This document shows, one piece after another, positions 3,124 to 28,256 of a stretch of DNA of 64,000 nucleotides. How positions within the stretch are numbered: the stretch's first letter is position 1; each line of letters opens with the position of its first letter. The notes under the pieces were generated by a model. The model did no database searches. It saw nothing but the letters and a program-made list of their open reading frames with translations, and was not told the origin of the DNA. The stretch spans positions 65,407 to 129,406 of the forward strand of contig JAPKDL010000001.1 of the NCBI GenBank assembly GCA_028822585.1, written 5' to 3'. The translations under genes were made by a program, and so were the position numbers. Source of the stretch: Alphaproteobacteria bacterium. GTDB taxonomy: Bacteria > Pseudomonadota > Alphaproteobacteria > UBA8366 > GCA-2717185.

Positions 3124-5172
3124 ATGGGGTATAGAGTAGGCGTCGACATTGGCGGGACCTTTATCGACTTTTGTGTGTTTGATGAAGCAGCGCAGGCGCT
3201 CACCACGCTCAAGGTGTTGACTACGCCCGCCAATCCCGGCGCTGAAATCATGACGGGGCTGGATCGCTTGTGGGACGCCGCTTCTATTGATCCCAAGGAT
3301 ATCGAAAGCTTCGTTCACGGATCGACAATCGGCGTCAATACGGTGATCCAGCGCAAAGGTGCCCGAATGGCATTGTTTGCGACGGAGAATTTCAGTGACG
3401 TACTGGAAGTCGCCCGGTTGCGTATGGCGGAATCCTATAGTCTGTTTTCCAGCAGACCGGAGCCTTTGATTACCCGTGAGCGTGTCTTTGGCGTTTCGGA
3501 ACGTTTGCACGCCAATGGCGGCGTCTTGCGGCCTTTACAAGAAGCTAGCGTTTTGAAGGCGTTGGCGCAGGCCCGCGCGAAGAACGTGGACGGAATCATT
3601 GTTTCTCTGCTGCATGGGTTTCGCAATCCCATTCATGAACAGGCGGTGGCGGATATTATTCGCCGCGAAGCGCCGGAGCTGTTCGTGTTCACCTCCAGCG
3701 AAATCTGGCCTGTTATTCGTGAATACGAACGTACGACCACCGCCGTCATCAACGGGTATATCCACCCGCGCATCGACGCCTACCTAACGTCGCTGGAAAT
3801 GGCGTTGATTGAAAAGGGCGTTTCGGCCAAACCTTTGGTGACGAAGTCGAATGGTGGCGTGATGAGCGTCGCCAATGGCAAGAAATCATGCGTCAATATG
3901 GTGCTGTCGGGGACGGCGTCCGGTGTCATGGGCGGCGCCTTCGTTGCGAAGAGCTGTGGCGTTAAAGACGCGATCACCTTGGATATCGGCGGCACCAGCG
4001 CGGATGTCGCCGTCATCATTGATGGCGCACCACAGTTTGGGATGGGGGAAAAGATCGGCGAATTCCCGCTTTATATTCCCTCAATTTCCGTCACATCTAT
4101 CGGCGATGGCGGCGGTTCCCTCGCCTGGGTCGATGAGTTTGGCGTTTTAAAAGTCGGCCCTGAAAGTGCCGGGTCGGATCCGGGGCCCGCTTGTTATGGG
4201 AAGGGAGGAACACAAGCAACAATTACCGACGCGTTCGCCGTTTGTGGCTTTCTGGGGCATCGGGATTTGGCCTATGAGTCGGTTCATATCGACCAAGACC
4301 TGGCCGTCGCCGCTGTGCAGGACGTGGCGCAAAAAATGGACCGGGATGTGGTGGGTGCGGCGGAGGCGATCATCGAAATCGCGGTGTCCGGCATGTACAT
4401 GGAATTGAACAAGATCGCTGCGCGATATGGTGTCGACATTCGGGATTTTGCATTGGTCCCCTTCGGCGGTGCCGGACCGATGCTGGGGTGTTTTTTGGCG
4501 CGCGAGTTGGGCATGGCGCGCATCGTCATTCCGGCTCGCCCCGGTGTGGTCAGTGCGCTGGGCGGTTTGATAGCCGATTTGAAGAACGACTTTGTCCGCA
4601 CGTTGTTGATGGATGTGACCGACGCGGCAGTGGTGCCCTTAAAGGACGCCTTGCAAAGCCTGTCGGAACAAGCGGGGCAATGGTTGCAGGAAGAGCAGGG
4701 ATATAACGGCGATGTCGTCAATCACGTGTCTGCCGATATGTGCTATGCGGGGCAGTCCTTCGAGATTGAGATTCCGTTGCAAGCCGCTTGGATTGTGGAT
4801 AGTGACATCGATGCAGTTTCGGACGCTTTCCATCGCCGCCACGATGAAATTTATGATTTTTGCGATCGGGAGGGAGAAACCCGGATCGTCAATTTACGCC
4901 TGGTGACGGTGGGCGACGCCCCGAAACCCGTCTTGAAGAAAATTGAGATAGGGTTTGGGCCGGCCCAGACAAAGGGAGCCGTCAGAGTCTGGTTCGATGG
5001 CGCCTATCATCAAGCCGCCTTAATTGAACGGGGCGCCTTGCGGGCGGGACAAACCATCAGCGGCCCTGCGGTGATTGCGCAATCTGATACGACAATTTGC
5101 GTACCCAACGGGTTTTCCGGTGTCGTGGACGCCGTTGGCAACATTATTTTGACGGCGGAAAATTTGGCATGA
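3124..5172 (+). CDS. Hydantoinase/oxoprolinase family protein, A subunit type
   Basis: The N-terminus MGYRVGVDIGGTFIDF (ASKHA-fold ATP motif) and the 682 aa length are typical of HyuA, oxoprolinase and acetone-carboxylase beta-type proteins. Confidence 0.9.
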   Translation: MGYRVGVDIGGTFIDFCVFDEAAQALTTLKVLTTPANPGAEIMTGLDRLWDAASIDPKDIESFVHGSTIGVNTVIQRKGARMALFATENFSDVLEVARLRMAESYSLFSSRPEPLITRERVFGVSERLHANGGVLRPLQEASVLKALAQARAKNVDGIIVSLLHGFRNPIHEQAVADIIRREAPELFVFTSSEIWPVIREYERTTTAVINGYIHPRIDAYLTSLEMALIEKGVSAKPLVTKSNGGVMSVANGKKSCVNMVLSGTASGVMGGAFVAKSCGVKDAITLDIGGTSADVAVIIDGAPQFGMGEKIGEFPLYIPSISVTSIGDGGGSLAWVDEFGVLKVGPESAGSDPGPACYGKGGTQATITDAFAVCGFLGHRDLAYESVHIDQDLAVAAVQDVAQKMDRDVVGAAEAIIEIAVSGMYMELNKIAARYGVDIRDFALVPFGGAGPMLGCFLARELGMARIVIPARPGVVSALGGLIADLKNDFVRTLLMDVTDAAVVPLKDALQSLSEQAGQWLQEEQGYNGDVVNHVSADMCYAGQSFEIEIPLQAAWIVDSDIDAVSDAFHRRHDEIYDFCDREGETRIVNLRLVTVGDAPKPVLKKIEIGFGPAQTKGAVRVWFDGAYHQAALIERGALRAGQTISGPAVIAQSDTTICVPNGFSGVVDAVGNIILTAENLA

Positions 5173-19198: not shown

Positions 19199-20052
19199 GG
19201 GGTCCCCTTTTTATCAGCCGCTGCTGTAATGGCGCGCCGGGTCACGGTCTCGGCTAAATGCCGCCGGTAATCCGCGCTAGCGTCTTCATCACTAACGATA
19301 TCGAGCGTGCCAATATCCGTTGCAATTGCATGCGTTAGCCCGTCGTCGAGACTGGCGGGGTTGGCGGAAATATAGCGCTCTGTGGTTGGCAGTGACGTGG
19401 GATGCGTCCCTATGCATCCGACCCAGATTCGTGGCTTATTGGCGGGGTCTTTTGGAATGGCTGCGGCTGCCCCCGCGATGGTGCGATGTCCAAAGACGAC
19501 CCGTTCATAACGTATGTTGCATGCCGTCACGGGTATTTCGATCCGCAGGAGCAATTCGTCTGGCGCCCTTAGAGTCTCAAGTGCACCGATTATGAACTGG
19601 CTTGCTGATATGTGGTGTTCGCCACGCGCAGATTTCAGAACTAATTGCGCGTCCAGCGCGGCGAGCAGCACTGGTGGGTCGGCGCGCGGTTCGGCGAAAC
19701 ATAAGTTACCGCCAATCGTTCCGGACGTTCGAACGCGAGCGTTGGCGATGGAGCTGCAAAGGGCGCCAAGCGCCGGGACAGCGCCAGAAATGATGGCGTC
19801 ATCGGCGATGGTCGCGTGGGTGGCGAGGGCACCCAGGGACACAATGTCGTCACGGCGGATAATGGTTCGAAGTTCGGGAATGCGCTTGAGATCGACAAGG
19901 TGCTGGTAATCTGCAAAGTGCATTTTCATCGCCAGAAGCAACTCGGTGCCGCCCGCGTAAGGAGAAACGTCGTCGCTATAGCGCGCCATGAGCGAAACCG
20001 CGTCATCAAGCGTTGTCGGGCGATGATAGGTGAACGGCCTAGGTAGCATCAT
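19195..20052 (-). CDS. Molybdenum hydroxylase medium subunit, FAD-binding
   Basis: The CoxM/XdhB-like FAD-binding domain includes AGGTELL. The start was trimmed to the MM at 20052/20049, which overlaps the large-subunit stop by 11-14 nt. The stop overlaps the small-subunit start by 4 nt. Confidence 0.85.
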   Translation of the reverse strand: MMLPRPFTYHRPTTLDDAVSLMARYSDDVSPYAGGTELLLAMKMHFADYQHLVDLKRIPELRTIIRRDDIVSLGALATHATIADDAIISGAVPALGALCSSIANARVRTSGTIGGNLCFAEPRADPPVLLAALDAQLVLKSARGEHHISASQFIIGALETLRAPDELLLRIEIPVTACNIRYERVVFGHRTIAGAAAAIPKDPANKPRIWVGCIGTHPTSLPTTERYISANPASLDDGLTHAIATDIGTLDIVSDEDASADYRRHLAETVTRRAITAAADKKGTP

Positions 20053-22318
20053 CGCCCCGCTTGCGCAGCGCGCGCCAGATACGTTCGGGGGTGAGCGGTA
20101 GGTCCCGGATACGGATCCCGTACCGCCGCGCCAACGCGTTCGCAATGGCGGGCGCTACCGGTAATATACCGCCTTCACCCATACCTTTGGCACCCATGGG
20201 ACCTGGGCCGTCGCCGTTTTCGATTAATACGGTGTGGGCGCGCTTAGCAATATCACCAATGGCGGGTACCCGGTAGGCGATGGGCGTCGCATTCACGGGT
20301 TGGCCATCGACGTAATCCAGACGTTCGAAAAGCGCGTGCCCCAAGCCCTGTACGGCGGCGCCCTCCTCCTGGCCTTCCGCGCCACTGGGGTTGATGGCGT
20401 GACCGACATCCGCCACACCTACATAGCGAGTGACCGACAATGTTCCGATTTCTTGATCAACGTCGACGTCGCAGGCGCCGACGGCGGTTTCCCAAAATAG
20501 CGGCGATTTTTTGAAGTCGCTGCCGTCGCGCGTTGGGGTAACCATGGCGCGACCCACGACCTCGCCGGAATCAACGCCGAATGCCCTGTGGTACACATCC
20601 TGGAACGGCAGGAATTCATCGCCATGAGCGACGCCGCCTGGGACGAGCCGAAGGTCGTTTGGCGCGCCGTCGAAGACTGATGACGCTAGCGCCAGAATTT
20701 GATCGCTGGCGTCGCGTGCCGCGTCTTCCACTGCAAGGCCCATGATCACCGTGGATCGGCTGGCACCCGTGCCCCAGTCAAATGGTGTTGTTGAGGTATC
20801 GGGGTTTGCAATCTGAATAGAGTTGGGGTTTTGATTTAACATCTTTGCGACGACTTCGCGCAAAACCGTTCGGACACCCTGGCCAATATCAACGCTGTTG
20901 GACATGACTATAATCGAGCCATCGACAAGAACCCGGACCAACGCGCCCCCAAGAGGGAGAATGCCGGGATCTGTTGCCGCGACGGCAATACCGGCAGCGG
21001 CGCCATCGCCTAGGTTCATTATCGCTTGGTCCGCACGCCCAATCATGTCGCCGATATCGGCGTCGAGAGGGCGCAATGTGTCTAAAATTTCGCCACCGCG
21101 CGGCAGCAGATTGCGACGCCGCAGTTCCACTGGGTCAATACCCATTGCGTCGGCGATCTCATCCATTTGCGATTCTGTCGCCCATACAGCTTGGGGGCCG
21201 CCAATGGATCGGAAGGCGGCGCCCGGTACCGTGTTCGTGTAGACGGCCTTGGCTTCGATTTCGAGGTTCGCGATGTCATAGGGGCCGATGATGCGGTGCG
21301 CCGCCTTCGCCGCAACGGCAGGCCCTGTGTCCGCATAAGCGCCACCATCCAATAAGATTGTGGCGCGTTTGGACAAAATTTTACCCGTCTTGTCTAAGGA
21401 TGTGTGCAGCGTCATTGTTGCGCCCAGGCGGCGACAGGTAAGCATCGATTCTGCCAACGTTAACGTCACGCGAACTGGGCGTCCGGCCTTGCGCGCGGCA
21501 GCGACCACCAGCGGTTCAATTTTGACCGAAGCCTTGCCGCCAAATCCGCCACCGACAAAGGGAACGATGATCCGGATGTTAGCAACGGCAATTCCAAAAA
21601 CTCGGGACAGTACTTTTTGCACCGCCGTGGGGGATTGCGCGCCCGACCATACGGTCAGGTCATCGCCCTCAAAGGCGGCGACAACGCTGTGTGGTTCAAG
21701 CGCGAAATGGGACACGCCAGGAAAGGTATAGGTATGTTCAAAAATATGCGCTGCGTCGCACTCAGCAGCGGTGGCGTCGCCGGTGCTGACTCCGAATTTC
21801 TGAAATATATTCGTGCCAGCGACGGGTTTGGCCTGACCGGTAAAGTAGAAATCGGCGATGGCGTCGTGAACATCGTGCAACACAGGCGCGTCCGGTGCGA
21901 TGGCCGCTGCGGCGGTGTCGACGAAGGGTAAATGTTCGTAGTCAATGTCGATTAAATCAAGCGCAGCTTCGGCAATCTCCAGCGTTTCCGCCACCACCAA
22001 CGCGACCGGTTCCCCGACGTAGCGGACTTTGTCAATCGCGATTACCGGGCGGTCGTTGAGAAATAGCCCCCAATGAATTTGCGCCAGCGTGGCCATATCT
22101 TCGCCAGTCAGGATCGTGACAACACCGTCAAGCGCGCTGGCTTCTGTGACATCCAGGCGTGTGATTCGGGCATGCGGGACCGCGCTGCGCAGAATGCGGC
22201 CATGCGCCATGCGAGGCACACGAATGTCGCTCGCATACACCGCGCCGCCCGTGACCTTATCGATGAGGTCGGCGCGCGCGGTGTTGTTGTCCGGTGGTGA
22301 TTCCTTCCTCACGTCCAA
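20039..22318 (-). CDS. Xanthine dehydrogenase/aldehyde oxidase family molybdopterin-binding large subunit
   Basis: 759 aa. The N-terminus has DKVTGGAVYASDI, followed by GGGFGGK and AAFRSIGGPQ motifs typical of the family. The start is TTG 22318 or GTG 22312. Confidence 0.9.
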   Translation of the reverse strand: MDVRKESPPDNNTARADLIDKVTGGAVYASDIRVPRMAHGRILRSAVPHARITRLDVTEASALDGVVTILTGEDMATLAQIHWGLFLNDRPVIAIDKVRYVGEPVALVVAETLEIAEAALDLIDIDYEHLPFVDTAAAAIAPDAPVLHDVHDAIADFYFTGQAKPVAGTNIFQKFGVSTGDATAAECDAAHIFEHTYTFPGVSHFALEPHSVVAAFEGDDLTVWSGAQSPTAVQKVLSRVFGIAVANIRIIVPFVGGGFGGKASVKIEPLVVAAARKAGRPVRVTLTLAESMLTCRRLGATMTLHTSLDKTGKILSKRATILLDGGAYADTGPAVAAKAAHRIIGPYDIANLEIEAKAVYTNTVPGAAFRSIGGPQAVWATESQMDEIADAMGIDPVELRRRNLLPRGGEILDTLRPLDADIGDMIGRADQAIMNLGDGAAAGIAVAATDPGILPLGGALVRVLVDGSIIVMSNSVDIGQGVRTVLREVVAKMLNQNPNSIQIANPDTSTTPFDWGTGASRSTVIMGLAVEDAARDASDQILALASSVFDGAPNDLRLVPGGVAHGDEFLPFQDVYHRAFGVDSGEVVGRAMVTPTRDGSDFKKSPLFWETAVGACDVDVDQEIGTLSVTRYVGVADVGHAINPSGAEGQEEGAAVQGLGHALFERLDYVDGQPVNATPIAYRVPAIGDIAKRAHTVLIENGDGPGPMGAKGMGEGGILPVAPAIANALARRYGIRIRDLPLTPERIWRALRKRGDDAT

Positions 22319-22475: not shown

Positions 22476-23087
22476 TTATGCAGTCTTTTTTCCCGTTAGC
22501 GCGAACCGCATTAATTCGAACCGGTCGTTGCCGAAATACATATCGTCGCTATTCACGAAAAATGTTGGGGATCCGAAACCGCCTCGTTCTATGATTTCAT
22601 CGGTGTTCACGAATAGCTGTTTTTTGATTTCATCCATCCCGATGCGTTCAATGAACGCATCCCCGTCCATACCGACGGAAATTGCGATCTCCTTGAGTTC
22701 CGATTCTTGCGAGATGTCGCGTTTATCCGTCCAATAGGCCTTGAAGCAAGCGCCGGAATATGGACCGATTTTGTCTTCTTCGATGGCGACGAACGCACCC
22801 CGTAACGATTTTACGCTGTTGAGCGGCGAGACCGCCGTTGGGTTTTTTTCAATGTCCAGGTATCTCGCCCAGTCCGCCAGATCCTTTTTATAGTAATTGT
22901 CTTTCGGAGGAATTGGGTTGTCCCGGCGGTTGTAAACGCTGGGGTTTACCTTGTTGAAAACACCGCCCACTAAAAATGGCTTCCAAATTAGTTCGGCGTC
23001 ATTGTCGGTGCAGAATGTTTCAATTCGGCTGTAGGCGTAATAGGTCCAGGGGCTAGAGTAATCGAAAAAAAATTCAACAGTGGCCAT
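22476..23087 (-). CDS. 2-hydroxychromene-2-carboxylate isomerase family protein (DsbA-like / kappa-GST fold)
   Basis: The N-terminus MATVEFFFDYSSPWTYYA carries the SPW(S/T)Y motif in place of CxxC. The C-terminal FGSPTFFV...FGNDRF is typical of the family. Confidence 0.8.
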   Translation of the reverse strand: MATVEFFFDYSSPWTYYAYSRIETFCTDNDAELIWKPFLVGGVFNKVNPSVYNRRDNPIPPKDNYYKKDLADWARYLDIEKNPTAVSPLNSVKSLRGAFVAIEEDKIGPYSGACFKAYWTDKRDISQESELKEIAISVGMDGDAFIERIGMDEIKKQLFVNTDEIIERGGFGSPTFFVNSDDMYFGNDRFELMRFALTGKKTA

Positions 23088-23287: not shown

Positions 23288-24181
23288 CTAAGACGCGGCG
23301 GCCAGCGAATCACCGGTTTCTCTCACTGTAGGACCCGTTCCCGCGACCGTGGTACGGCGCATGACGCGCCGGTGTTTGGTGGTGTCGAAGGGAGTGCCGC
23401 GATGCAGGATGCAGCGATTGTCCCAAATGATAAAATCGAACTGTCGCCATTTATGGACATACACAAATTCGGTTTGCGTCGATTTATCCACGAGATCGCG
23501 TAAAAGCTGGCGGCCTTTTTCTTCCGGCCACCCGATAATGTGCGATGCGTGCGAGCCGCTATAGAAATTTTTTCGCCCCGTTGACGGGTTTGTTCGTACT
23601 ACCGCGTGGCGAACCGGGGGTACTTCCTTCAAGGCTTGTTTGGGTGCTTTATAGCCTTTCACTAGGGCGCGCGAATGCCCGTAATTATGTTCCGCGACCA
23701 ATCCATCCAATTGGAGTCGTTCTGCTGCCGGAAGTAAGTCATAGGCGGTTCGGCAGGAGGCGAATTGCGTATCAGCGCCAATGGGTGGCACTTCGCGCCC
23801 GGACAGCATGGAACAATAGGCGGGCGTTGGCTTGAACGAACTGTCGGTATGCCACATTTCATTGCCGCTATTCGACTTCAGGCGTGTATGACCTTTCGGA
23901 AAAATTTCATTCGTACGGTAATCGATGTTGGTGATGTTCGCCACTGGGACGCCGCCATCGCCTTCGGGTTTGTAAACTGTTGTTTCCAAGGTGCCGAAAC
24001 GGGCGCTAAACGCCGTTTGCGTTTCGTCGTCGAAACGTTGGTTGCGGAACACCAGGACCGAATACTTGTCCAGCGCAGCCTTAATTTCAGACACCACTGT
24101 GTCATCGACATTTGCTATCAGGTTGAGGCTGGTAATTTCAGCCCCAAAATAATCTGTTAGATTTTGAATGGTCAACGCCAT
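23288..24181 (-). CDS. TauD/TfdA family Fe(II)/2-oxoglutarate-dependent dioxygenase (paralogue 1)
   Basis: WHTDSSF (HxD iron ligands) and the C-terminal WDNRCILHRG. The start was trimmed to ATG 24181 (MALTIQNLTDYFGAEI). Confidence 0.85.
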   Translation of the reverse strand: MALTIQNLTDYFGAEITSLNLIANVDDTVVSEIKAALDKYSVLVFRNQRFDDETQTAFSARFGTLETTVYKPEGDGGVPVANITNIDYRTNEIFPKGHTRLKSNSGNEMWHTDSSFKPTPAYCSMLSGREVPPIGADTQFASCRTAYDLLPAAERLQLDGLVAEHNYGHSRALVKGYKAPKQALKEVPPVRHAVVRTNPSTGRKNFYSGSHASHIIGWPEEKGRQLLRDLVDKSTQTEFVYVHKWRQFDFIIWDNRCILHRGTPFDTTKHRRVMRRTTVAGTGPTVRETGDSLAAAS

Positions 24182-24262
24182 GGCTGCGTCTCCTCTCGAT
24201 TCCGTTCCAGATGTGGGAATTGAAGCAGGCGACGGTGCTTGATGCAAGCCAGAGTACCTAGT

Positions 24263-24308
24263 GGTTTGATTGAAAGGCTTGGTGTCCAAGAATTTTGTGA
24301 ATCAAACC
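24263..24308. promoter_or_regulatory. 9 bp inverted repeat GGTTTGATT-N28-AATCAAACC in a divergent control region
   Basis: Read directly from the sequence. It lies between the divergently oriented TauD gene (start 24181) and the Prx-like gene (start 24472). Confidence 0.3.
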
Positions 24309-24363: not shown

Positions 24364-24471
24364 CGGTATTGCCACTCGATCAAGCCATCGTTGCGAAGGT
24401 GGGATCAACGGGCCATACTGCCCTTCATCGTCGCCATGGCATTCAGCGCAAACCTCACAAGGAAATTTTAA

Positions 24472-24942
24472 ATGTCCCCAAAACTTGGAATTGAGGATGC
24501 GTTTCCCGATATTACACTCAACCTCGTCGACGGTGGGACGCTAAGTCTGCCGGTCGGGCTGGATGCAAATTATAAGGTGGTCTTGTTTTATCGGGGACAT
24601 TGGTGACCTTTCTGTCGCCGGCAGTTAGTCGGCTTCGAAAAGTTGAAAGCGGAATTTGATGCGTTGAATACGAAGATTGTCACAGCCAGTATCGATCCAC
24701 TGGATAAGGCGCAAGAAGTGGCGAACGATGTGTCGTTTCCTGTTGGTTACGGCGCGACTCGCGAAATTGGCGATGCGATAGGCGCGTTTTGGGAAGAGCG
24801 GCGAGGATTGATTCAACCGTCTGAATTCATCATCGGCGCGGATAACAAGATTGTCACCAGTAGCTACAGCGATGGCCCGCTGGCGCGGATGGATGCTGCG
24901 GATGTTATCAAACTTATCAAGCTGTACGAGTCGCGAAAATAA
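24472..24942 (+). CDS. Peroxiredoxin-like (AhpC/TSA, PRX-like2) protein with an in-frame TGA at the redox Cys position; candidate selenoprotein (UxxC)
   Basis: ATG 24472 has AAGGAA upstream. The frame reads ...YKVVLFYRGHW[TGA 24604-24606]PFCRRQLVGFEKLKAEFDALNTKIVTASIDPLDKAQEV...KLYESRK. The track ORF 24643..24942 is in the same frame (24643-24472=171). The TGA replaces the first Cys of the conserved WCP(F/Y)C motif, and no other lesion is present. Confidence 0.6.
24608..24642 (+). promoter_or_regulatory. Candidate bacterial SECIS-like stem-loop immediately 3' of the in-frame UGA
   Basis: Manual fold. Lower stem: 24608/24642, then 24609-24612 paired with 24637-24640 (A24641 bulged). 24614 pairs with 24636. 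A 2x2 internal loop follows. Upper stem: 24617-24622 paired with 24628-24633 (GCCGGC/GUCGGC, one G-U pair). The apical loop is AGUUA (24623-24627), about 20 nt from the UGA. Confidence 0.4.
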
Positions 24943-24987: not shown

Positions 24988-25818
24988 ATGGAGATAACGC
25001 AACTGGCCAATGGCTTTGCGGTCGAAATTGGTGGGGTCAATTTAGCCGAGACGCTGAACGACGCTGCCTTCGATGCCATCAAGGCGTTGTGGATGGAAAA
25101 TCGCGTTGTAGTGTTTCGGCATCAAACACTTAACGATGACGGTTTGGTCGCGTTCGCCGCGCGTTTTGGGCCCCTGTTTGTCCATGCGCAATCATCGCTT
25201 CTATCGTCGCGGCGTAAAGAGGTGATGGAGCTTTCCAATCTGGAAGATGTGGAAAGACCCGTCACCCATGAACTCGACTGGCATACGGATCAGAGCTATA
25301 CGGCGCAACCGGTGTTTGGTACCATTCTTTACGGATTGGTGACGCCGGATGAAGGCGGTGAAACTCATTTCGCCGATCTCGCTGGTGCCTATGTTTCCCT
25401 GCCGGAAGAATTGCGGACGCGGATTGAGGACGCCACGGCTGTTTATTCCGCTGAACCGCGTCCAAAGGTAAGGGAGAAACCGCTTAACGCGGAAGAACGC
25501 TCCCGCATTCCCGATTGTGTTCACCCTATCGTTCGGACCCACCCTTATTTAAACCGGAAATCGATTTATCTTAGCCCGTTGCACATTCGAACCATTGGGA
25601 ATTTACCGGAACCGGACAGTCTAAGTCTGTTAGGTGAATTGATTGAACACGCTGCGCAACCGGCACATCTTTACCGGCATCGTTGGTCGGTTGGGGATGT
25701 GGTCATATGGGACAATACTTCTGTCATGCATCGCCGCACATCGTTTCCATCTCATGAACGCCGCCACCTAAAACGGACGGGGTTCTATTTGCCCGACGAA
25801 TTGGCGATACCTGTTTAA
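24988..25818 (+). CDS. TauD/TfdA family Fe(II)/2-oxoglutarate-dependent dioxygenase (paralogue 2)
   Basis: WHTDQSY (HxD) and the C-terminal WDNTSVMHRR. 276 aa. It starts 45 nt after the Prx-like stop. Confidence 0.9.
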   Translation: MEITQLANGFAVEIGGVNLAETLNDAAFDAIKALWMENRVVVFRHQTLNDDGLVAFAARFGPLFVHAQSSLLSSRRKEVMELSNLEDVERPVTHELDWHTDQSYTAQPVFGTILYGLVTPDEGGETHFADLAGAYVSLPEELRTRIEDATAVYSAEPRPKVREKPLNAEERSRIPDCVHPIVRTHPYLNRKSIYLSPLHIRTIGNLPEPDSLSLLGELIEHAAQPAHLYRHRWSVGDVVIWDNTSVMHRRTSFPSHERRHLKRTGFYLPDELAIPV

Positions 25819-25889: not shown

Positions 25890-27395
25890 TTGTACGTGAC
25901 GGTGACGGGAATATTGGCCGCCTTCACGATGGTCGTTTCCGGCACTATCGTGAACGTGGCAGTTCCTGATGTTATGGGCGCCTATGGGGTAGGGCAAAGC
26001 GAGGTTCAGCTTCTCTCGACAGCGTTCATGATCGCGATGACGACGGGACAATTGCTCAACGCCTGGGTGGTTGCGGTCGTCGGACAACGTTGGGGTTTCA
26101 TCGGGACCTTAATTCTCTTTTTCTTCGGCAGTCTTGTCGCCGGGTTCGCCGATAATTTTGGGATGATCGTGTTGGGCCGCGTGTTGCAGGGGGCGGCGGC
26201 GGGGGTCATTCAGCCTTTGGTCATGGTGACGCTATTTCAGGCTTACCCCGAAGGCAAACGGGGCTCTGCGCTGGGGCTTTACGTGATGGGGCTTGTCGGG
26301 GCGGCGTCCGTTGGTCCTCCGGCAGGCGGGCTTTTGATCGAAATGTTTGATTGGCGGTATATCTTCTTTGCGCCATTGCTTCTCGTCCTTGTCGCCTTGC
26401 CCCTTGGCGCCCTATTTCTACCTTCTGTGCGAAGCAAGACACCGCCCGCATTCGATTGGATCGGCTTTATCCTGATTTGCAGCGCTTTATATTGTCTCAT
26501 GACGGCGATCTCCAACGGGCCGCGCGAAGGGTGGGGCTCCAATTATATCGTGATGCTTTTTATCATCGGAATCGGCACATCCATCGCCTTTATCCAGTCG
26601 CAGCGGCGCGTGGGTTCGTCGATGCTCGATCTGTCGCTGTTCAGGTACAAGATGTTTGTCATAGCGGTTGTCGTCACGTCGTTCTCGGCGATTGGAAATT
26701 TTGCGTCGGTGTACGCAGTGCCGGTCGCCGCCCAGCTTGTGCAAAACATGACACCCTTTGAAGCCGGCCTTGCGTTGATGCCGTCGATGATGCTGGCGAT
26801 GTTTATCATGCCGATCAGCGGGCGTCTGTCGGATAAAATTCCACCACATCTGGCCGTGATTACCGGGTTTGTCTTTCTGACGGCAGGCGTTGTGCCGTTT
26901 GCCTACGCCGATCCCAATACGTCTTTTATGATGATTGTGATTTACGGGTTGATTGGTCGGTGGGCGACGGCGTTTGTGCAACCATTCATCATGAATACAG
27001 CCCTGAATTCGCTGCCCGAGGACAAGCTCAATGCGGGTGGCGGAACGCTTAATTTCTGTCGTCAATTGGTGGGGTCGCTGGGCACAAATTTATGGGTTGT
27101 CTTCGTTGACCGGCGCATTGACTTTCACGCGAGTACGTTGACGGCGACACAAAGCTCTGCTGCGGCGACAAGCGCGGAATTGTTGCGTGGCGTTGACAAA
27201 ATTTACCGCGAAGCGGGCGTGCCTGAAGCCGTCCATCAGGCAGGCGGGTTGCACTATCTTGGTCAAATCATTGAGGCCCAGGCCAATGTGCTTGGGTTTC
27301 AGGATGGTTTTTGGGTGCTTGCTGCATCCTACGCGATTGGTATCATTCCGGCCTGGTTCATGGGCCGGATGTATTACGAAAATAAACGCAAATAA
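25890..27395 (+). CDS. MFS transporter, DHA2 (EmrB/QacA-like, 14-TMS type); start uncertain and possibly at 25851
   Basis: TIVNVAVPDVMGAYGVGQSEVQ in TM1 and the roughly 500 aa length fit this family. The first canonical start is TTG 25890. The open frame extends up to 25851 and encodes family-like residues (DDLFKLYGPRYR). Confidence 0.85.
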   Translation: MYVTVTGILAAFTMVVSGTIVNVAVPDVMGAYGVGQSEVQLLSTAFMIAMTTGQLLNAWVVAVVGQRWGFIGTLILFFFGSLVAGFADNFGMIVLGRVLQGAAAGVIQPLVMVTLFQAYPEGKRGSALGLYVMGLVGAASVGPPAGGLLIEMFDWRYIFFAPLLLVLVALPLGALFLPSVRSKTPPAFDWIGFILICSALYCLMTAISNGPREGWGSNYIVMLFIIGIGTSIAFIQSQRRVGSSMLDLSLFRYKMFVIAVVVTSFSAIGNFASVYAVPVAAQLVQNMTPFEAGLALMPSMMLAMFIMPISGRLSDKIPPHLAVITGFVFLTAGVVPFAYADPNTSFMMIVIYGLIGRWATAFVQPFIMNTALNSLPEDKLNAGGGTLNFCRQLVGSLGTNLWVVFVDRRIDFHASTLTATQSSAAATSAELLRGVDKIYREAGVPEAVHQAGGLHYLGQIIEAQANVLGFQDGFWVLAASYAIGIIPAWFMGRMYYENKRK

Positions 27396-28256
27396 TCAGG
27401 GTTCTGCGGGCGGAACCACATAGCCAGATTTTTGACCCTGCAAGGTCGTACGCAACATGTGGCGCGGCTGGGAGGGATCGAAATCACCCAGCGCCAGATG
27501 CATTGTCGTGCGATTGTCCCAAGACACAAGATCGCCGACCCGCCATTGATGGCGATAGACGTTTTCCGGGCGGGTGGCGTGGCGGCACAGATAGTCGATG
27601 ATCGGCGCGCTTTCCGCCCGGCTCATGCCATCGAAATGAGACGTGCGTTCGCTGACATAAAGCGCCTTCACGCCGCTGTCCGGATGGGTTCGCACACAGG
27701 GATGCGCGATGGGTGGATTCACTTTCAGCAATTCGACCATTTTCGCGGGATCGCGTTTTGCGGCACCCGACACAAGGGTGAAGTCGTATACTGATTGAAA
27801 GTCGTCAACGACACTTTTCATTTTGTCCGACAAGTCGTCATAGGCGCGGGCCATATTGCAAAACATGGTGTCGCCGCCCACGGGTGGCTTTTCGGTGCAA
27901 TAGAGCATCGACGCGGCGGCGGGACGCCCGGTATAGGAATAGTCAGAGTGCCAGTTCCGGCCGGCGTTCCGGCTTTGTGACGGTTGCCCCTTCTTTGGCT
28001 TGTTTGTGACTTCGAGAAGTTCGGGATGACCGTCAAGCCGTTCGTGCGGCGTCGCGGCGTGGTCATCAAGCGCACCAAACCGCAGTGAAAACGCGATGTG
28101 CTGTGCTGGCGTCAGCTCGAGGCCGCGAAATACGATGACATGGTGTTCCCGCCACGCGTCATGGATCGCCTCGACCTCTGAATTGGAGAGGTCGCCAACG
28201 ATGTTAACACCGTAAATTTCGGCGCCAAGCGCATGCGATAGCCGGTTCGTTTCCAT
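27396..28256 (-). CDS. TauD/TfdA family Fe(II)/2-oxoglutarate-dependent dioxygenase (paralogue 3)
   Basis: WHSDYSY (HxD) and the C-terminal WDNRTTMH. 286 aa. Confidence 0.9.
   Translation of the reverse strand: METNRLSHALGAEIYGVNIVGDLSNSEVEAIHDAWREHHVIVFRGLELTPAQHIAFSLRFGALDDHAATPHERLDGHPELLEVTNKPKKGQPSQSRNAGRNWHSDYSYTGRPAAASMLYCTEKPPVGGDTMFCNMARAYDDLSDKMKSVVDDFQSVYDFTLVSGAAKRDPAKMVELLKVNPPIAHPCVRTHPDSGVKALYVSERTSHFDGMSRAESAPIIDYLCRHATRPENVYRHQWRVGDLVSWDNRTTMHLALGDFDPSQPRHMLRTTLQGQKSGYVVPPAEP

Follow-up and report, generated by a model that had tools for sequence, protein, structure and literature searches.

Does the TGA triplet at positions 24604–24606 end a reading frame, or does it encode selenocysteine (Sec) inside a single peroxiredoxin-like (Prx-like) gene? 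The triplet lies in a 64-kb stretch of DNA, referred to as the window, that comes from a Rhodospirillaceae-like marine or aquatic alphaproteobacterium. An earlier note on this DNA had proposed the second answer. It described a frame that runs from ATG 24472 across the TGA and stays open to 24942, giving 156 codons in total, and stated that the ORF caller had split the gene and listed only 24643..24942. Both descriptions were confirmed when we re-read the sequence. The ATG at 24472–24474 is followed by 44 sense codons, the TGA, 111 sense codons, and a TAA at 24940–24942, and the ORF list holds the distal piece alone (99 aa, with a TTG start). The translation of the frame from ATG 24472 reads ...VVLFYRGHW*PFCRRQLVGF... 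around the TGA. The features of the gene are as follows.

24459..24464, plus strand: Shine-Dalgarno-like AAGGAA, read from the sequence, with 8-nt spacing to ATG 24472
24472..24942, plus strand: CDS of a predicted selenoprotein, Prx-like 1 (UxxC), 156 aa (44 codons, Sec-UGA, 111 codons, TAA)
24604..24606, plus strand: TGA, predicted Sec codon 45, the U of U-P-F-C; TGA in 80 of 80 related species
24613..24615, plus strand: TGT, Cys48, predicted resolving partner in the UxxC motif; aligns with the BCP-type peroxidatic Cys

Conservation of the TGA and of the surrounding frame

The position of AAGGAA supports a start at ATG 24472 over one at TTG 24643. The two-sided codon-usage score of the frame was 0.24 upstream and 0.28 downstream of the TGA, against a mean of 0.23 for the long ORFs, and this frame scored highest among all TGA-interrupted frames of the window. 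The same scan of the window returned no other convincing TGA-interrupted gene and therefore provided no independent in-window sign of Sec use. When the TGA was read as Cys, the joined protein matched the Pfam families AhpC-TSA (PF00578; 1.1e-19) and Redoxin (4e-14) over residues 7–136, so the AhpC-TSA domain spans the TGA.

To NCBIfam models the gene gave only sub-threshold matches, of which the best was SelL_rel_redox (28 bits, where the cut-off is 120); peroxiredoxin was also among them. As all NCBIfam scores for the Prx-like gene fall below cut-off, public annotations truncate it (to about 99–107 aa) or split it. The protein collections accordingly hold 99–107-aa “redoxin” fragments, pairs of a 44-aa and a 99-aa ORF, or code-4 translations with W, and on other contigs, too, the gene callers give two ORFs, one of 44 aa and then one of 99 aa. 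A protein search returned approximately 35 full-length homologues together with many 105–107-aa matches that start just past the stop position.

We collected relatives by scanning one genome per GTDB species, which gave the 80 closest loci, at 58–92% amino-acid identity. All 80 loci are from MAGs, labelled mostly as Alphaproteobacteria (Rhodospirillaceae, Hyphomicrobiaceae, and Defluviicoccus) or Betaproteobacteria (Burkholderiales and Nitrosomonadales). The homologous codon was TGA in every one of these species-level relatives (80/80). Mean column identity among the 81 sequences was 0.79 over the 41 codons that precede the TGA and 0.76 in the part that follows it. Upstream of the TGA, stops were found in none of the 81 sequences in the frame of the gene, as against 78 and 43 of the 81 in the two other frames. 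Between the window and its closest relative (locus L001), the codon changes comprised 17 synonymous and 3 non-synonymous changes upstream and 22 synonymous and 5 non-synonymous changes downstream. These comparisons show that purifying selection acts on the upstream segment in the frame of the gene. A conserved TGA flanked on both sides by conserved coding sequence is what classically marks a Sec codon in silico.

The TGA had been placed at the first Cys of the redox motif, with the second Cys intact, and the alignment bears this out on both points. Homologues P0001, P0002, P0009, P0035, and P0082 have Cys in the TGA column, and Cys48 is invariant in all 81 sequences. The genuine Cys forms, which are a few among the full-length homologues, read GHWCP[YF]C. 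Several other entries that appear as full-length homologues (P0003, P0007, P0011, P0021, P0026, and P0068) read GHWWPYC; they are best explained as products of a code-4 gene caller that translated TGA as Trp.

The predicted SECIS hairpin

The earlier note had suggested a search for a bacterial SECIS element, and a conserved hairpin of suitable geometry was found directly after the UGA.

24617..24633, plus strand: predicted bacterial SECIS core, with a 6-bp stem (GCCGGC/GUCGGC) and a 5-nt apical loop (AGUUA)

The hairpin starts 10 nt after the UGA, and the distance from the UGA to the loop is 16 nt. In the bSECIS consensus, one of the first two loop positions is a G, the next nucleotide is G or U, and the apical loop lies 16–37 nt from the UGA (PMC13188914). 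The loop A-G-U-U-A, with G at position 2 and then U, and the distance of 16 nt agree with this consensus.

All 81 sequences contain a 17-nt hairpin of this type. The alignment gives the lineage-specific consensus GCCGNC-AGUUR-GNCGGC, located 10 nt past the UGA, which is usable as a search model. The two arms were paired in 96.6% of the alignment cells, against 5–54% when the 3′ arm was slid by 1–3 columns, and RNAalifold predicted the identical helix from the 81-sequence alignment. Covariation was observed in two of the six pairs. Pair 21-29 was found as G-U, G-C, A-U, U-A, and U-G, and pair 18-32 changed from C-G to G-C in loci L032 and L064, with an amino-acid change alongside. A U-U mismatch was present at pair 5 in 12 of the 74 distinct sequences.

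We examined the synonymous sites because the hairpin region encodes a conserved peptide, CRRQLVGF, from which part of the sequence conservation of the predicted hairpin stems. The Leu codon of the loop was UUR in 81 of 81 sequences, and UUR accounts for 10% of the Leu codons elsewhere in these genes. The Val codon of the hairpin was GUC in 54 of 54 cases (47% elsewhere in these genes), and the Arg codon was CGC in 79 of 81 (49% elsewhere). Single-sequence folding of 24598–24670 was not significant (z = -1.07), and an Rfam scan of the whole window gave no match, with no curated RNA family covering the predicted SECIS. The minimum-energy hairpin, which pairs the UGA itself (UGGUGAC/GUCGCCG), was considered and rejected: the Cys codon is UGC in 46 of the 81 orthologues, which breaks an A-U pair.

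The hairpin was absent from the distant Cys homologue P0082 (46% identity). Three close Cys forms keep the hairpin, with the loop mutated in one of them, and in these forms it is apparently a fossil of a recent Sec-to-Cys conversion. TGA-containing genes of the DsbA-like (UPWC) and AhpD-like (CTYU) types adjoin the Prx-like gene in related loci, and their hairpins have the same 5-nt xGUxx loops. The shared loops suggest a common recognition signal for SelB in these lineages.

A DsbA-family gene is also present in the window itself (22476–23087, minus strand). We considered it as a second selenoprotein and rejected it, as it reads SPWT at the position where the Sec-containing DsbA-like relatives read UPWC.

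Sec-decoding genes, gene neighbourhood, and alternative explanations

Neither selA, selB, nor selD (tblastn with E. coli SelA, SelB, and SelD) nor tRNA-Sec (ARAGORN) was found within the 64-kb window, and no Sec machinery was found in the approximately 7 kb past its left end, which were read from locus L098. Among the relatives, 36 of the 80 loci had tRNA-Sec within 10 kb of the Prx-like gene; of the 40 loci with 9 kb or more of sequence on each side, 25 did. In 12 loci the tRNA-Sec gene shares the strand of the Prx-like gene and precedes its ATG by less than 250 nt, and there the gene order is selA-selB-selC-Prx-like. The 10-kb flanks of the 80 relatives contained selA in 32, selB in 38, and selD in 11 loci, and selD was sometimes present as a fusion of roughly 744 aa. 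As sel genes and tRNA-Sec adjoin so many of the relatives, the family is physically linked to the Sec-decoding apparatus. As approximately 37% of the well-flanked relatives have no sel genes within 10 kb either, not finding them in the window says little, and from the relatives we infer that the genome of the window probably decodes Sec.

The order selA-selB-selC-fdhA was described in 2006 as the only such arrangement in Alpha- and Betaproteobacteria (PMC1794560). The recurrent order selA-selB-selC-Prx-like, with or without the predicted DsbA-like(U) and AhpD-like(U) genes, extends this fdhA-only picture.

The Prx-like gene of the window is followed by two genes that had already been pointed out as its neighbours.

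24988..25818, plus strand: TauD-family Fe(II)/2-oxoglutarate dioxygenase (NCBIfam taurine dioxygenase, 6.8e-39, below cut-off)
25890..27395, plus strand: DHA2/EmrB-type MFS transporter (TIGR00711, 1.3e-86, above cut-off)

The gaps are 45 nt between the stop of the Prx-like gene and the TauD-family gene and 71 nt between the TauD-family and MFS genes. No terminator-like site was found in either gap, and co-transcription of the three genes is plausible. This gene order is common only to the window and L001. We therefore rejected the TauD/MFS context as a family-level functional clue; synteny limited to a single relative says little on the function of the family.

A tentative reading, to which we give rather less than even weight, is that in many Alpha- and Betaproteobacteria Prx-like 1 travels with the Sec-decoding trait as a compact “Sec island”, often joined by a DsbA-like(U) or AhpD-like(U) gene, and that the copy in the window was secondarily relocated to a TauD/MFS operon. 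Such an island, if true, would be analogous to, yet distinct from, selA-selB-selC-fdhA. The relocation, if true, would hint that the protein has a dedicated task, for instance in redox protection or repair tied to organosulfonate or 2-oxoglutarate-dioxygenase metabolism.

The TGA could also have arisen in other ways. In this strain, a nonsense mutation from TGC or TGT might have killed a Prx-like gene of the ordinary CxxC type; a single transversion suffices for this change, and the gene callers do report the locus as two small ORFs. The occurrence of TGA in all 80 other species effectively refutes this explanation, and purifying selection on both halves of the gene and the conserved downstream hairpin with its frozen synonymous sites also argue against it. 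The earlier note had raised the possibility that close relatives carry TGC or TGT while this allele decays; none of the 80 relatives has TGY at this codon, the frame is intact on both sides, and the allele has no additional frameshifts or stops. We consider a pseudogene extremely improbable. The chance is just as slight that the TGA is a sequencing or assembly error or that it encodes Trp under an alternative code (code 4 or 25). The six database proteins with W at this position would fit the alternative code, but TGA terminates 15 of the 41 long ORFs in the window as an ordinary stop, none of the other window genes requires an in-frame TGA, and the standard code is used by Alpha- and Betaproteobacteria, to which the hosts belong. 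As to an error, by which TGC or TGT would have been misread as TGA, the exact 99-aa distal ORF is recorded on 13 contigs, of which six were read. Five of these, from independent metagenome assemblies, contain the identical 471-nt gene including the TGA, which is therefore not a sequencing error, and the sixth has a 5-nt variant that keeps the TGA.

The explanation that the gene is a fossil or orphan, in other words a member of a true Sec family in a host genome without Sec machinery, deserves slightly more weight and is still improbable. Under it, the UGA would terminate translation or be read through by a near-cognate Trp or Cys tRNA, and the gene would be heading for decay or for conversion of TGA to TGY. 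The lack of sel genes and tRNA-Sec in the window and in the approximately 7 kb past its left end, when many relatives have them within 10 kb, is in line with this explanation, as are the move of the Prx-like gene into new surroundings of TauD and MFS genes and the Sec-to-Cys conversions in the clade, whose close Cys forms keep the hairpin. Against it, no decay was observed: synonymous changes relative to L001 outnumber non-synonymous ones by 17:3 upstream and 22:5 downstream in a frame that is intact on both sides, the predicted SECIS is intact, and the allele is identical in five assemblies while its diverged variant keeps the TGA. L001, which has the same non-sel context, also retains the TGA and the hairpin, and in about 37% of the well-flanked relatives the 10-kb flanks are equally free of sel genes.

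The conserved TGA (80/80), the Cys forms, the hairpin, and the linkage to sel genes all support the proposal that the locus encodes a UxxC selenoprotein. On this evidence, the TGA at 24604–24606 is very probably a genuine Sec codon in one gene for a 156-aa Prx-like 1 selenoprotein.

Family, active site, and comparison with known systems

Prx-like 1 (pfam00578, UxxC) was represented by 225 Sec sequences in the GOS selenoproteome (Zhang & Gladyshev 2008, PMC2398784). The supplement of that study lists, under “#Prx-like 1”, sequences that read ...VVLFYRGHWUPYCRRQLVAFEE... and ...EYKVILFYRGHWUPFCRRQLVGFEEQK... (PMC2398784). A Prx-like family whose UXXC motif is thioredoxin-like and stands in place of the TXXU motif of Sec-Prx had already been described in the Sargasso Sea paper (Zhang, Fomenko & Gladyshev 2005, PMC1088965), and the selenoprotein family, also named “Prx-like thiol:disulfide oxidoreductase”, is covered by two reviews (PMC9312934 and PMC13188914). 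A BLASTP comparison of the window protein with GOS JCVI_READ_286511 gave 52% identity over 127 aa (E = 1e-47). By sequence, the window gene is a further member of this computationally defined selenoprotein family known from marine metagenomes.

The structure was assessed with the AlphaFold (AF2) model of P0009, a natural Cys homologue that is 60% identical to the window protein and not the window protein itself. This model has a pLDDT of 90.3; its top PDB matches are Prx/BCP proteins (TM 0.78–0.82), and ResA gave a TM of 0.72. As modelled, the protein has a Prx-type thioredoxin fold. Alignment to the BCP of Aeropyrum pernix (2cx3) placed Sec45 on the Ser/Thr of the PxxxT/SxxC motif and Cys48 on the peroxidatic Cys. 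The same alignment placed the invariant Pro116 (IQPSEF) on the catalytic Arg; this was one weak phmmer alignment (E ~1e-4), and the replacement of the Arg is accordingly held with moderate confidence. Pro116 also occupies the cis-Pro position of thioredoxins, and alignment to StoA (3erw) placed W-U-P-F-C on W-C-P-P-C.

Two of the three features of the canonical Prx triad are thus replaced, the Thr/Ser of PxxxT/SxxC by Sec45 and the catalytic Arg by Pro116, and the protein therefore combines a peroxiredoxin-type fold with a thioredoxin-type active site. Neither does it correspond to a Sec-containing peroxiredoxin (TxxU), as its Sec lies three residues N-terminal of the position of the peroxidatic Cys. 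Sec at the Thr position of TxxC and Pro in place of Arg make a thioredoxin-like selenol/thiol oxidoreductase activity likely.

The following mechanism is proposed. With UGA at codon 45, the hairpin at 24617–24633 would recruit SelB with Sec-tRNA(Sec), Sec would be inserted at this codon, and translation would run on to the TAA at 24940. The selenolate of Sec45 would then act as the nucleophile, with a disulfide, sulfenic acid, or peroxide as the oxidised substrate, and a Sec45-Cys48 selenenylsulfide would form and be re-reduced. All of this, from Sec insertion in the host to the catalytic cycle and the kind of substrate, is a proposal.

The main value of these results concerns annotation: a predicted selenoprotein gene that is very probably genuine, and that is widespread, is still split or truncated by standard gene callers. 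Correct marking of the TGA restores the intact UxxC active site to the protein and flags its host as a probable Sec user. For the question of the substrate, the most useful lead is the recurrent linkage to selA-selB-selC and to Sec genes of the DsbA-like and AhpD-like types. The results introduce no new biological principle, as UxxC Prx-like selenoproteins have been catalogued since 2004–2008.

Compared with the BCP/PrxQ peroxiredoxins (2cx3 and Sulfolobus Bcp4, 3hjp), the protein is alike in fold (TM ~0.8, from the P0009 model), in its AhpC-TSA match, and in the alignment of Cys48, whereas it has Sec for the Thr/Ser of the motif and an invariant Pro116 for the Arg. It differs from Sec-Prx (TxxU), where Sec replaces the peroxidatic Cys itself. 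ResA, StoA, and TlpA (1su9 and 3erw) resemble it in that their W-C-P-x-C aligns with W-U-P-F-C and in the conserved Pro opposite the motif. Unlike the window protein, in whose 156 aa no signal or anchor sequence was found and which is only ~20% identical to them, these are membrane-anchored or periplasmic factors of cytochrome maturation and sporulation.

The predicted SECIS resembles the E. coli fdhF element and the bSECISearch consensus in that a stem-loop lies ~10–11 nt past the UGA with a small loop containing G and then U. It differs from the fdhF element by a short, perfect stem of 6 bp that lacks a bulged U, and by its AGUUR loop.

In regard to the Prx-like 1 family, the window protein shares the Pfam domain, the UxxC Sec motif, and the local sequence FYRGHWUP[YF]CRRQLV. 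The published members, like the window protein, are predictions from sequence. The copy in the window differs in that it lies in a TauD/MFS neighbourhood and not beside sel genes, and nothing essential sets it apart from the family.

Window genes around the Prx-like gene

The following genes were located near the Prx-like gene in the window.

20039–22318, minus strand: XDH/CoxL-family molybdopterin-binding subunit
22476–23087, minus strand: DsbA-family (PF01323) protein
23288–24289, minus strand: TauD-family dioxygenase
24988–25818, plus strand: TauD-family dioxygenase
27396–28256, minus strand: TauD-family dioxygenase

The three TauD-family genes are paralogous and lie inside 5 kb; two luciferase-like monooxygenase genes, one class II aldolase gene, and two MFS transporter genes are found nearby, and an MsrB gene (Pfam "SelR") is found further along. 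The clustering of these genes with the three paralogues suggests that the region is an organosulfonate or xenobiotic oxidation island. As in the window, about 22 related loci (for example, L042, 13226–15562) carry an XDH/CoxL-family subunit gene no more than a few kb away from their Prx-like gene; the encoded proteins are about 760 aa long and share about 31% identity with the window copy. This proximity could stem from common descent of the region, or the two genes could be functionally linked.

The DsbA-family gene is flanked by the XDH-like genes on one side and by the upstream TauD gene on the other. Its product carries S-P-W-T at the motif position, whereas redox DsbA-like proteins carry CxxC or UxxC at the same place, and it probably belongs among the non-redox, HCCA-isomerase-like members of the family.

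Further TGA-containing genes in related loci

Two other genes with an in-frame TGA were observed in related loci.

L065, about 3350–3966: DsbA-like gene (also L032, L036, L038, L040, L049, L050, L053, L056, L064, L066, L068, L076, and L077)
L074, 8683–9876: AhpD/CMD-like gene split by the TGA (also L008, L011, L017, L024, L057, and L059, upstream of Prx; and L032, L050, L053, L064, and L076)

In betaproteobacterial loci, the DsbA-like gene sits directly 3′ of the Prx-like gene. Its TGA falls in ...LEIFSDYV[TGA]PWCYLST... (UxxC), and a hairpin with the loop CGUGC comes after it. It is a second predicted selenoprotein gene adjoining the Prx-like gene and, like the latter, is cut short by ORF calling. 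In the AhpD/CMD-like gene, which several alphaproteobacterial loci carry directly 5′ of the Prx-like gene, the TGA lies within ...ARVSALNQCTY[TGA]TTSH... (CxxU), and a hairpin with the loop CGUGM is found downstream.

Public "full-length" homologues of the Prx-like protein (P0003, P0007, P0011, P0021, P0026, and P0068) read GHWWPYC at the motif, presumably as a result of gene calling with genetic code 4 or 25. Sec-UGA is read as Trp in these six entries, and mistranslated selenoproteins are therefore present in protein collections.

Linkage to Sec-decoding genes

An ORF of ~744 aa that joins a pyridine-nucleotide-disulfide oxidoreductase-like N-terminus to SelD (L021, 14749–17028; about 9 other loci) adjoins tRNA-Sec and is separated from the Prx-like gene by a few kb; it is the Ndh-SelD fusion already recorded in the GOS paper. 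In 12 related species, tRNA-Sec lies <250 nt upstream of the Prx-like gene start on the same strand (L003, 6652–10468; also L007, L020, L036, L038, L043, L052, L053, L061, L066, L068, and L069), in a compact cluster ordered selA-selB-selC-Prx-like. The 2006 survey (PMC1794560) gave fdhA as the sole selenoprotein, and as the sel neighbour, in Alpha- and Betaproteobacteria.
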